Shown here: positions 17,903 to 19,675 of the stretch, one piece after another
Numbering within the stretch: the stretch's first letter is position 1
Layout of the letters: each line of letters opens with the position of its first letter
NCBI GenBank assembly: GCA_965204575.1
Contig: OZ241993.1
Span: 1,600,001 to 1,664,000 of the forward strand
Source of the DNA: an uncultured candidatus Porisulfidus sp.
GTDB taxonomy: Bacteria; Pseudomonadota; Gammaproteobacteria; Poriferisulfidales; Poriferisulfidaceae
Length of the DNA stretch: 64,000 nucleotides
Direction: 5' to 3'
Program-made: the position numbers and the translations under genes
The notes under the pieces: model-generated
Told to the model about the DNA's origin: nothing
Seen by the model: the letters and a program-made list of their open reading frames with translations, nothing else
The model's database searches: none

Positions 17903-18190
17903 CTAAGCAGCCACGATTCGTTCGATGTTAATTTTGTGCTCCAAATCGCGCGACTGGGCAAGATCGAAAGCCAACTGCATACCGAGCCACGTTTCAGGGG
18001 TCGAGCCGAACGCCTTCGATAGACGGTAAGCCATCTCAATGGAAACGGATGCTTTCTCGTTGACCAGATTAGAAAGCGTCTGGCGTCCGACCCCCAGCCG
18101 ACTGGCAGCTTCTGTCACCGATAGGCCCAGAGGTTTCAAACACTCTTCCCGCACGATGATGCCGGGATGCACAGGATTTTTCATTGCCAT
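17903..18190 (-). CDS. higA: HigA-family (Xre HTH) antitoxin, now separated from its RBS and toxin by an insertion
   Basis: MAMKNPVHPGIIVREECLKPLGLSVTEAASRLGVGRQTLSNLVNEKASVSIEMAYRLSKAFGSTPETWLGMQ. Confidence 0.9.
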   Translation of the reverse strand: MAMKNPVHPGIIVREECLKPLGLSVTEAASRLGVGRQTLSNLVNEKASVSIEMAYRLSKAFGSTPETWLGMQLAFDLAQSRDLEHKINIERIVAA

Positions 18191-18195
18191 TTCAG

Positions 18196-18219
18196 GGAAA
18201 TTATGTATGAAAGTTGACA
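18196..18219. repeat. Terminal inverted repeat at the tnpB 3' end
   Basis: GGAAATTATGTATGAAAGTTGACA; the reverse complement of 18199-18219 equals 19488-19508 exactly. Confidence 0.92.
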
Positions 18220-18330
18220 GAGGATTCCTCGCCAACTTTCACCATTTCTTGACGCTTCCCAGGCCGACTGTGGCGGGATGCCCCGCCGGTGTCGCCACCT
18301 CCACGTCCAGTCGCCCCATTCCCGAAGGCC
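18196..18330 (-). ncRNA. Putative TnpB guide-scaffold RNA (omega/reRNA) region
   Basis: Hairpins GGCGGG-gcat-CCCGCC (18272-18287) and TGAAAGTTGGC-GAGG-aat-CCTC-t-GTCAACTTTCA (18208-18241) overlap the tnpB 3' end, where TnpB scaffolds are normally encoded. Boundaries are inferred. Confidence 0.5.
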
Positions 18331-19459
18331 AAGATGTTTAATGCGGCGTTCACATCCGCATCGTCCGCGTGCCCGCAAGCGGTGCACTTGAAGTCTGTTC
18401 CATTTCTGTTTTCTCATCGACGTGCCCGCATGAATGGCACGTCTGGCTAGTGTACGCCGGATGCACATGGCGCATTTCCATCTTGTAGTTCAGACACAGC
18501 TCCAGCGTGCCCCATGCGCTGGCCAGGATCTTCCGGTTGAGTCCTGACTTCTGTTTCACGTTCTTGCCGGGTTTCTCCACCGTGCCCTTGGCCGACTTCG
18601 TCATGCCCCGGATGTTCAGTTTTTCTACGTAAGCGACATCGTACTCGGAGGCAATGCTCTTGCTGACGTGGTGCGCCCAGTTGAGGCGGGCGAAGCGTTC
18701 CGCCTGGTACGCCTTCTGCAACTTCACCTTGGTGATCGCCCTACGGTTGCTTCCCTTCACCTGCCGTGCCATCTTGCGCTGGTAGCGCCTACGTTTTGCC
18801 ACCTTCCTCCCCAAGTCCGGGCCCGGGTACTTCGTGCCGTCCGAAAGAACCGCCCAACCATTCTCGTTTACATTGCGGTCGATTCCGACTTCCCGAATGC
18901 TGTGCGGAAGACTCGCTTCCGCCTGGACTTCATAGGTCAGGTAGGCGTACCACTTGCCGCATTCGTATCTGATCCGCCCGGACTTGAACTCGCCGTCCGG
19001 GTACGGATTGTTGCCGACCAGCTTCATCCAGCCGACCTTCTACACGAGCAGGCTTTCTCCCGCTACTCGTGCTGATTGATAATCAATCGGAAAACTTGGA
19101 ATAGTGCTGTACTTGCCGTGAAACTGCGGCAGTTTCCGGTTCAGTTTCCCGCCGGTCTCCCGATCCTTGAAGAATTCCTTGTAGGCCGTTTCGATAGGCT
19201 TCAAAGAGGTCCGGACCGCTTTTGACGAATAGCCCTGCAGCCACTTCGTCGTGCCATCCTCCCTCCGCATGACGGTGAAGACATGACACAGCGAATAGTG
19301 CCGAAAGTCCGGCTTGATTCCGAATTCGTACTCGTCCCTGAGCTTCCCGACCATGTGGTTCCAGACGAAGCGGCAGGCCCCGGCGGTGCCGTGCAACTGC
19401 TGGTTTTTTCGTGCAGAACCCGGATGCAGGCGGTAGCGGACGGTGCGGGGGACTTTCAT
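18201..19459 (-). pseudogene. tnpB: TnpB RNA-guided endonuclease, disrupted by one in-frame TAG and one 1-bp deletion
   Basis: N-terminal RYRLHP...GACRFVWN; in-frame TAG at 19040-19042 followed by KVGWMKL. RuvC-I GIDRN, RuvC-II VEKLNIRGM, TSQTCHSCGH. Restoring one A in the run at 18409-18412 gives KNRNGTDFKCTACGHADDADVNAALNIL (RuvC-III), ending at TAA 18201-18203 inside the TIR. Confidence 0.93.
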
Positions 19460-19487
19460 AGGAAGATTGTCTTCAAGGCTCCCTATT

Positions 19488-19511
19488 TGTCAACTTTCAT
19501 ACATAATTCCC
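19488..19511. repeat. Terminal inverted repeat at the tnpB 5' end
   Basis: TGTCAACTTTCATACATAATTCCC, i.e. GGGAATTATGTATGAAAGTTGACA on the minus strand. Confidence 0.92.
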
Positions 19512-19525
19512 CATTCCAGTATCTC

Positions 19526-19582
19526 CTGGTGGTAATCAAGACAGGCAACATCCAAGACCTTCCCCTCCTCGAATCGAAATGT
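19526..19582 (-). pseudogene. higB: 3' remnant of a HigB (RelE-like) toxin gene
   Basis: Translates TFRFEEGKVLDVACLDYHQ, matching the HigB C-terminal pattern (TFRF...DV..LDYH-stop). It is directly followed by AGGAGA, the original higA RBS; no upstream toxin coding sequence is recognisable. Confidence 0.7.
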
Positions 19583-19675
19583 CCTGATTATTTGCTTATT
19601 GTTGGTGTCTATTGGCAACAGTCAACCTGAATCCGGACAAATCCCCTTGCTAAAATTGTTTTCAGGCTCACATTC

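Follow-up and report, generated by a model that had tools for sequence, protein, structure and literature searches.

An RNA-guided nuclease gene between IS1595-type transposon ends in Candidatus Porisulfidus and its relatives in sponge-symbiont genomes

The window analysed here, a stretch of 64,000 nucleotides from an uncultured candidatus Porisulfidus sp. (assembly GCA_965204575.1, contig OZ241993.1, positions 1,600,001 to 1,664,000 of the forward strand), carries at 18196-19511 a unit of 1,316 bp whose sole gene is tnpB, a member of an RNA-guided nuclease family. The unit is bounded by terminal inverted repeats (TIRs) and flanked by an 8-bp direct repeat, which we read as a target-site duplication (TSD). 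Judging from sequence comparison, it is very probably a non-autonomous member of an IS1595-family transposon lineage with a module of TnpB and omega RNA as cargo; we call the lineage ISNwi1-like only provisionally, after the end consensus GGnnATTAT of the ISNwi1 subgroup. The original prediction, that a TnpB clade has been adopted by an IS1595-type transposon and is mobilised in trans, is supported by shared ends, by TSDs and by elements that carry a transposase. The parts of the window element are as follows (window coordinates).

18188..18195, no strand: TSD copy on the tnpB-3' side, CATTTCAG, which reads CTGAAATG on the tnpB strand and includes the higA start codon (sequence; 7/8 match to 19512-19519)
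18196..18219, minus strand: right-end TIR, tnpB 3' side, with IS1595-like tip (provisionally ISNwi1-like by the end consensus; same tip on 67/79 related loci and on IS1595 transposase elements)
18196..18330, minus strand: putative omega-RNA-like structured region overlapping the tnpB 3' end, the inner right TIR forming the 3' arm of its terminal hairpin (covariation)
18201..19459, minus strand: tnpB pseudogene, RNA-guided nuclease family, disrupted by a TAG codon (19040-19042) and by the loss of one nucleotide (18409-18412) (open reading frames, ORFs; Pfam and structure match of an intact copy)
19488..19511, minus strand: left-end TIR, tnpB 5' side (arm complementarity, core count)
19512..19519, no strand: TSD copy on the tnpB-5' side, CATTCCAG (sequence, comparison with empty alleles)

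The two TIR arms (18195-18219 and 19488-19512) are 96% complementary over 25 nt, end in the tips GGAAATTAT and GGGAATTAT with the GG start of IS1595-type TIRs, and share a 21-nt core that occurs exactly twice in the window versus 0 times expected from 100 shuffles. The tnpB ATG (19459) sits 28 nt inward of the TIR at 19488, and the final piece of the ORF terminates at 18201-18203, within the opposite TIR. What had been claimed from the letters alone, namely a 1,316-bp unit with tnpB as its only gene, 24-bp TIRs with a perfect core of 21 bp, an 8-bp direct repeat with one mismatch and a gene that fills the element, is borne out by these coordinates, by the ORF list and by the Pfam matches of an intact sister copy. 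As features of the IS1595 family we used an 8-bp TSD, two transposase domains and TIRs starting with GG, the latter stated for Merlin (PMC8101967). A TSD of this length is present in the window copy, with 7/8 positions alike, and in the orthologous copy of genome G009, with 8/8. The ORF list shows no gene with Zn_ribbon_IS1595 and DDE_Tnp_IS1595 inside the window element, which can therefore be at most a non-autonomous derivative.

A wide scan with one genome per species yielded 477 confirmed TnpB relatives, of which the best 80 were kept and 79 loci examined, L099 having been dropped at a contig end. Tips within 2 mismatches of GGGAATTAT at both ends were found on 67 of the 79 loci. Among 66 loci that could be scored for a TSD, 34 showed identity at 8/8 and another 8 at 7/8 positions (42 with at least 7/8), while control 8-mers taken 20 nt farther out reached a maximum of 5/8, with 0/66 at ≥6/8. 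These counts agree with what the original prediction had expected of the flanks of TnpB homologues. Within the genus, perfect 8-bp TSDs surround the TnpB elements L009, L010, L012, L023, L030, L033, L034 and copy C of the genome under study, and TSDs of 7/8 surround copies A (the window copy) and D as well as L020, L024, L025 and L029; such tips are missing from L017, L028, L035 and L036, TnpB loci of the genus that are more distant (31-40% identity).

The best 80 relatives come from metagenome-assembled genomes of Ca. Porisulfidus, Ca. Oxydemutator, Arenicellales, Rhodothermales, Caldilineaceae, one member of the Paracoccaceae and others, and most of the public runs in which parts of the window occur bear the label of a sponge metagenome. 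Among 301 genomes sampled from the phylum, none but the window's own (G000) had a close relative at E 1e-60. To judge from these genome sequences, tnpB with IS1595-type ends is common among sponge-symbiont genomes. The relatives with the same ends (L068-L147) span Gammaproteobacteria, Rhodothermales/Bacteroidota, Caldilineaceae and Paracoccaceae, many of them seemingly sponge-associated, and the occurrence of such ends across several phyla in sponge communities suggests horizontal spread within the habitat.

Solo tnpB genes are usually remnants of the IS1341 type, and a 143-bp miniature inverted-repeat transposable element (MITE) with similar ends exists in the own genome. Both observations would suit a one-off nesting, in which an ordinary IS605/IS1341-type tnpB came to lie in, or to be flanked by, an unrelated MITE, so that TIRs and direct repeat have nothing to do with the gene. 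We regard such a nesting as hardly credible, for tnpB fills the element in every copy, the tips stand at a constant distance from the gene in the 67 loci mentioned, from many genomes and 42 of them with a TSD of at least 7/8, the two TIR arms co-vary between subfamilies, and the whole unit is absent from the empty site described below. A Y1 transposase domain (PF01797) is likewise absent from the own genome, which is 98.75% complete. The original prediction had itself named the nesting as its counter-case, which the TIRs and TSDs shared with homologues contradict.

A source of transposase with matching ends, the other point on which that prediction depended, was found in the same genus (G010, L053 and L059; G005, L038). 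In a survey of the genus, IS1595 DDE matches were present in 14/16 genomes and relatives of the window TnpB in 11/16. L053 and L059 are autonomous IS1595 elements of 1,246 bp, with TIRs matching at 25/25 positions and TSDs at 8/8 (TTTGAGTT and GAAGAGCA); other clean autonomous elements are L044 in G010 (1,271 bp) and L051 in G005 (2,222 bp), and L038 in G005 (2,680 bp) combines an IS1595 transposase with an N6_N4 methylase-HNH gene. The TIR of L053 and L059 reads GGGAATTATGTAGGTAACTTGACAA and that of the TnpB element L025 GGGAATTATGTAGATAACTTGACAG, whilst the L038 TIR, GGGAATTATGTAGCAAAATCTGCAA, is of the type found on the TnpB elements copy D, L010, L013, L020 and L024, G005 itself also holding TnpB elements with this TIR type (L014, L023). 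In total, 8/8 TSDs were found at seven IS1595 transposase elements, and transposase genes lie within elements of matching TIR types at L038, L044, L053, L059 and L157. For 42 of 58 IS1595 loci no convincing TIR pair was obtained under the filters used, many of these loci being fragments or longer than the 1.5-kb flanks.

The two genes also occur in cis. In the Rhodothermales genome G316, with 55 IS1595 domain matches, an IS1595 transposase is followed at 1.4 kb by tnpB in the same orientation, the two being parts of a 3.7-kb unit composed of outer left TIR, transposase element, 470-bp linker, tnpB element and outer right TIR, in this order. The unit is about 99% identical at six loci and is enclosed as a whole, at every one of them, by a perfect 8-bp TSD whose sequence varies from locus to locus; its outer TIRs differ from each other. 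The tnpB-only part moves alone too, as seen at L147 with the TSD AAATATTA. The 30 G316 IS1595 loci that were fetched (L187-L216) comprise 15 with the composite linker, 4 transposase-only insertions with 8/8 TSD, 9 without TSD and 2 without tips, and the tnpB-linked form hence outnumbers the clean transposase-only insertions.

Intact members of the clade encode what looks like a complete nuclease. The sister copy B (419 aa, 90% DNA identity to the window copy) has Pfam matches, in the order listed, to HTH_OrfB_IS605 (E 5.6e-6), OrfB_IS605 (E 5.5e-12) and the zinc ribbon Cas12f1-like_TNB (E 3.6e-17), and aligns over its full length with the ISDra2 TnpB structures (E 7e-25). In an alignment of 14 clade members (A1) the residues D194, E279 and D369 as well as C341, C344, C359 and C362 are invariant, and the RuvC triad lines up with the GVD/VED/DEN motifs of the solved ISDra2 TnpB. 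The catalytic D-E-D and the four cysteines being retained throughout, the clade is predicted to be competent as a nuclease.

On the 3' side of the RuvC motif the nucleotide sequence itself is conserved, even among TnpBs that are only about 50% identical. An alignment of 30 sequences (A3) gave a three-helix structure of 18 pairs with 96.7% of cells paired and compensatory changes in 8/18 pairs; its score was reached by 0/500 shuffles, and slid controls gave 31-43%. The last 60 nt form a hairpin whose 3' arm is the inner right TIR and whose 5' arm lies internally and varies with the TIR type, about nine bases of the tip remaining unpaired. For 54 unique ends, the mean minimum free energy of this right-end hairpin is -13.2 kcal/mol versus -8.4 for the left-end TIR (Wilcoxon p 2.4e-8, a generous value because the copies are related) and -9.8 for shuffles. 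The covariation supports an omega-RNA-like structure that would end in a hairpin built on the right TIR.

Since a conserved hairpin takes its 3' arm from the inner right TIR, the inverted repeats could be thought to serve mainly the RNA or TnpB, as part of the omega-RNA structure or as promoter, the element being moved by some other mechanism. This is very improbable: the same TIRs bound elements that have no tnpB (transposase-only elements, those with methylase cargo and the MITE), the left TIR has no partner hairpin, and the 8-bp TSD is a feature of the IS1595 family according to the passages of PMC8101967 that treat it.

The insertion sites carry a further signature, which is confined to one side. 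In an alignment, on the tnpB strand, of 41 unique insertions whose TSD matches at 7/8 or better, the base just 5' of the TSD is G in 30 and A in 11 cases, with neither C nor T at any site; the second base 5' of the TSD is G in 20/41. The mirror position past the right TSD copy shows no bias in these 41 insertions, and the TSD itself is AT-rich and symmetric, with W (A or T) at T1, T2 and T7. Elements of the genus have a purine at this position in 13/13 cases, five of them shared with the set of 41, and the G316 composites have G in 15/15. Transposase-only elements, oriented by their gene, have a purine in 6/10 (Fisher p 3e-4, a value that overstates the case because related copies are not independent). 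A 9-bp TSD or shifted boundaries were considered as source of the purine bias and rejected, a full 8-bp TSD separating the biased base from the TIR. The purine looks like a target-adjacent motif (TAM). For a guide that begins with the TSD and extends outward, the purine of the empty site would stand exactly at the TAM position; once the site is occupied, the C of the TIR tip takes that place.

The purine could instead be an asymmetric target preference of the transposase or of the insertion complex in an IS1595-borne element, with TnpB as mere cargo or in another role such as defence or regulation. Strong constraint is confined to a single position, a small extent for a TAM; the transposase could distinguish the two ends, because the outer TIRs of the composite differ; the transposase-only control is small (10 sites, 6 with purine); and IS1595-type ends carry unrelated cargo as well, namely the methylase-HNH gene and two unknown ORFs. 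Set against this, the purine persists where the TIRs are identical at 25/25 positions (L090, L098, L105), the preference within the TSD is symmetric while the flank bias is one-sided, the composites in G316 have 15/15 G as compared with c, g, g, a at transposase-only copies of the same genome, and the TnpBs of the clade keep their catalytic residues without exception. We therefore consider a pure target preference unlikely, though it deserves serious weight.

The reading that we prefer, an IS1595-borne element whose TnpB cuts at a TAM next to the empty site, has a number of points against it, which we gather here. We infer both the IS1595-driven transposition and the RNA-guided cutting from sequence. 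A recognisable tip pair is missing at 12/79 loci, and in 24 of the 66 scorable loci the TSD matches at 6/8 or less. The own genome has no intact IS1595 transposase, and the sole IS1595 locus of genome G013 (L046) has no TIR that matches those of at least 4 recent TnpB-only insertions there; G013 holds a TnpB clade of about 45% identity with at least five near-identical copies (L016, L026, L034, L142, L144), four of which have a TSD of at least 7/8. A TAM of one or two bases would be unusually short for TnpB, the bias could be a target preference of the transposase, and the transposase-only comparison numbers only 10 sites, its p-value being subject to the non-independence of copies noted above. 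Rfam gave no match, only the sub-threshold whalefall-1 (E-value mode, L003 and L004), so that no described RNA family covers the tnpB 3' region. Contigs from the RNA libraries of two sponge metatranscriptome runs are unstranded and possibly derived from DNA, and were not counted as expression; among these Logan contigs, one of 727 nt bridges the tnpB 3' end into higA (strand, ends and level cannot be told from contigs, and DNA is a possible source), one of 155 nt spans the TIR and continues into a different flank, and the one with the greatest depth value is a 65-nt contig from the scaffold region, the latter two likewise unstranded and possibly DNA; gaps in this coverage carry no meaning.

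Under our preferred reading, the cycle of the element would run as follows. Comparison of the copies indicates that an IS1595 DDE transposase, encoded elsewhere or beside tnpB in the composite, would recognise the TIRs of about 25 nt and that insertion would create the 8-bp TSD. The tnpB gene of intact relatives would be transcribed toward the right end, where the omega-RNA scaffold would overlap the tnpB 3' end and pass through the right TIR as 3' arm of its last hairpin, and the guide would consist of the TSD and the flank beyond. TnpB may then cut the unoccupied allele, made up of the purine-ending TAM, the TSD and the right flank, and so promote recopying of the element, whereas an occupied site would escape cutting, the guide match there being preceded by the pyrimidine of the TIR tip. 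Taken as a whole, the family may be a bacterial counterpart of the Fanzor1 arrangement, an idea that we hold tentatively and give somewhat less than even weight: a large, horizontally spread TnpB clade would have adapted to the TSD-making IS1595 transposons, with the transposase-binding TIR as last omega-RNA hairpin, a guide that starts at the TSD, a purine-ending TAM that marks the empty site, a pyrimidine tip that protects the occupied one, and TnpB-bearing forms that outcompete transposase-only ones (15 vs 4 of the 30 loci in G316).

As for the window copy, it is an unremarkable insertion in a toxin-antitoxin locus, dead and stranded. Its tnpB is a pseudogene with an in-frame TAG where intact copies have CAG, and it is one base short in the T-run at 18409-18412, where other copies carry an extra T. 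The neighbouring genes are listed below (window coordinates).

17903..18190, minus strand: higA-like HTH antitoxin gene, which adjoins the element downstream on the same strand as tnpB (Pfam HTH_3, E 1.1e-12)
19520..19618, minus strand: C-terminal relic of higB, about 42 codons, severed from higA by the insertion (ORF; intact 92-aa higB of G005)

Empty alleles of this locus exist. In G005 (L180) and G008 (L181) the higB-higA junction is uninterrupted and has one copy of the 8-mer exactly at the position of the element, and in G003 (L182) the site is likewise empty. The claim that removal of the element together with one repeat copy restores a higB-higA junction is thus confirmed, and the single 8-mer of the empty allele maps exactly onto the boundaries that had been proposed. 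G009 (L179/L009) has an orthologous insertion with a perfect 8/8 TSD, CTGAAATG. By comparison of these genomes, the window copy inserted on the higA start codon at the higB-higA junction before G000 and G009 split. In G005 higB is intact with 92 aa (ending ...LDVDYLDYH) and higA starts 11 nt later; in the window, about 205 bp of the intact higB seen in G005 and G008 are missing from the stretch 19520-19675, with higA intact. The window lineage has thus lost the toxin of the pair, and as the TSD includes the higA start codon, higA is cut off from its ribosome-binding site.

The own genome (one contig of 1.82 Mb) contains seven copies of the window tnpB lineage, 77-97% identical, of which five read through without stops. 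Each has its own TIR pair, in which the tips are kept and the inner parts vary, left and right arms changing together. The TSD is perfect in copy C (TGGATATA), matches at 7/8 in copies A, D and E and at 8/8 in copy F. The window copy (A) has a mosaic make-up. Over about 550 aligned columns, the frameshift among them, it matches copy D (genome 435784-437062, L066) at 100% identity, but its ends and TIR type resemble those of copies B and C, which points to gene conversion between TIR types. Its later decay comprised a nonsense mutation and a frameshift, the latter shared with copy D through the conversion tract. A census of TIR pairs in this genome gave six pairs versus none in a reversed-genome control, namely A, D, E, the 143-bp MITE, a 1,966-bp element and one doubtful pair; copies B and C were missed by the filter because their left tips have decayed. 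Classified as the original prediction had suggested, the genome holds tnpB elements, a MITE and a two-ORF cargo element between such TIRs, and no intact transposase element. The sole IS1595-type transposase, with the Zn_ribbon_IS1595 and DDE_Tnp_IS1595 domains, is frameshifted and has lost part of the DDE domain (L006:1090-2962, genome about 1081612-1083480), its left end resembling the TIRs of the TnpB elements; as only this broken gene is kept, the window copy is now stranded and immobile.

Some further elements in the own genome were noted alongside. Next to the transposase relic comes an ORF of 313 aa whose DPPY motif makes it look like a methylase, a layout that recalls the transposase and methylase element L038 of G005. 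The MITE (L218:201-343, genome 466573-466715) has IS1595-like tips, 19/25 TIR identity and the perfect TSD TTCACGAA. The 1,966-bp element (L217:301-2266, genome 585386-587351) has similar TIRs, the perfect TSD TCGAATTT and no transposase; its two ORFs of 354 and 228 aa have no Pfam match, and an NPPW motif in the 354-aa ORF suggests a DNA methyltransferase, in which case the element may carry restriction-modification cargo. Other TnpB families of this genome (e.g. at 410193-411482, 1468320-1469600 and 266716-267921) are 37-46% identical to copy B.

TnpB in association with DDE transposases is a kind of system already known. Altae-Tran et al. (2023, PNAS) describe, in the passages of PMC10691335 on this point, six DDE-transposase-associated branches of TnpB (DDE-1 to DDE-6), all with inverted terminal repeats, and solo TnpBs whose ends are those of transposase-bearing copies, from which mobilisation in trans is deduced; IS630 is the only DDE partner named in the main text. 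The elements described here resemble DDE-1 to DDE-6 in that tnpB lies within inverted ends with its 3' end near the transposon end, solo copies share their ends and some have a transposase in cis, and those passages contain neither a census of TSDs nor a hairpin built on a TIR nor a purine bias. ISL2, IS630 and IS1031 are given as DDE partners in the section of a 2026 review that deals with such associations and calls them rare (PMC13565253). IS1595 or ISXO2 is not named as TnpB partner in the literature searched, to which the supplementary tables of PMC10691335, which could list it, did not belong. The IS1595 partner, the composite in cis, the hairpin built on a TIR and the TAM-like purine thus appear to be new details of a known kind.

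Like IS1341-type solo tnpB of the IS200/IS605 group, the window element measures about 1.3 kb, has a single tnpB gene and a putative omega RNA overlapping its 3' end. It differs from IS607, which has a serine recombinase and neither TIRs nor TSD, in possessing both; no search of the genome for a serine recombinase was made. IS1595 elements with passenger genes are known as ISNwi1+ and ISPna2+ in the ISfinder scheme, and share with ours TIRs starting with GG, 8-bp TSDs and a cargo that accompanies or replaces the transposase, as in L038, where a methylase-HNH gene stands next to it; here, in contrast, the cargo would be an RNA-guided nuclease with its RNA, and the transposase has been lost in most copies. 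Unlike IS200/IS605 elements, which have a Y1 HUH transposase and neither TIRs nor TSD as summarised in part of PMC13565253, the window element has 24-nt TIRs and an 8-bp TSD in a genome without Y1. As far as the relevant passages of PMC10711439 go, Fanzor1 is also a nuclease carried as cargo by cut-and-paste transposons with TIRs and TSDs, with nuclease-only non-autonomous copies, and its guide-RNA scaffold is predicted to take in TIR and TSD, a feature that the TIR-built hairpin parallels. Fanzor1 is eukaryotic or viral and belongs to another protein branch and other transposon superfamilies, whereas here the host is bacterial and the partner IS1595, itself described as the prokaryotic relative of the eukaryotic Merlin in the corresponding part of PMC8101967.

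TnpB is thought to help IS605 and IS607 transposons to survive their scarless excision. What benefit TnpB brings to a DDE transposon, and how a guide is read across a TIR and a variable TSD, are raised as open questions in a 2026 review (PMC13565253, section 6.2). The family described here supplies dozens of natural insertions with clean boundaries, and transposase-only, nuclease-only and combined forms within single genomes, and its one-sided flank signature is directly testable. With it, IS1595/Merlin becomes the second major DDE superfamily among TnpB partners, and sponge symbionts become a source of compact nucleases (about 419 aa) that look intact. The family also shows how a transposon that duplicates its target site can house an RNA-guided nuclease. 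If the proposed counterpart of Fanzor1 is real, RNA-guided homing would pay also for transposons that leave double-strand breaks.

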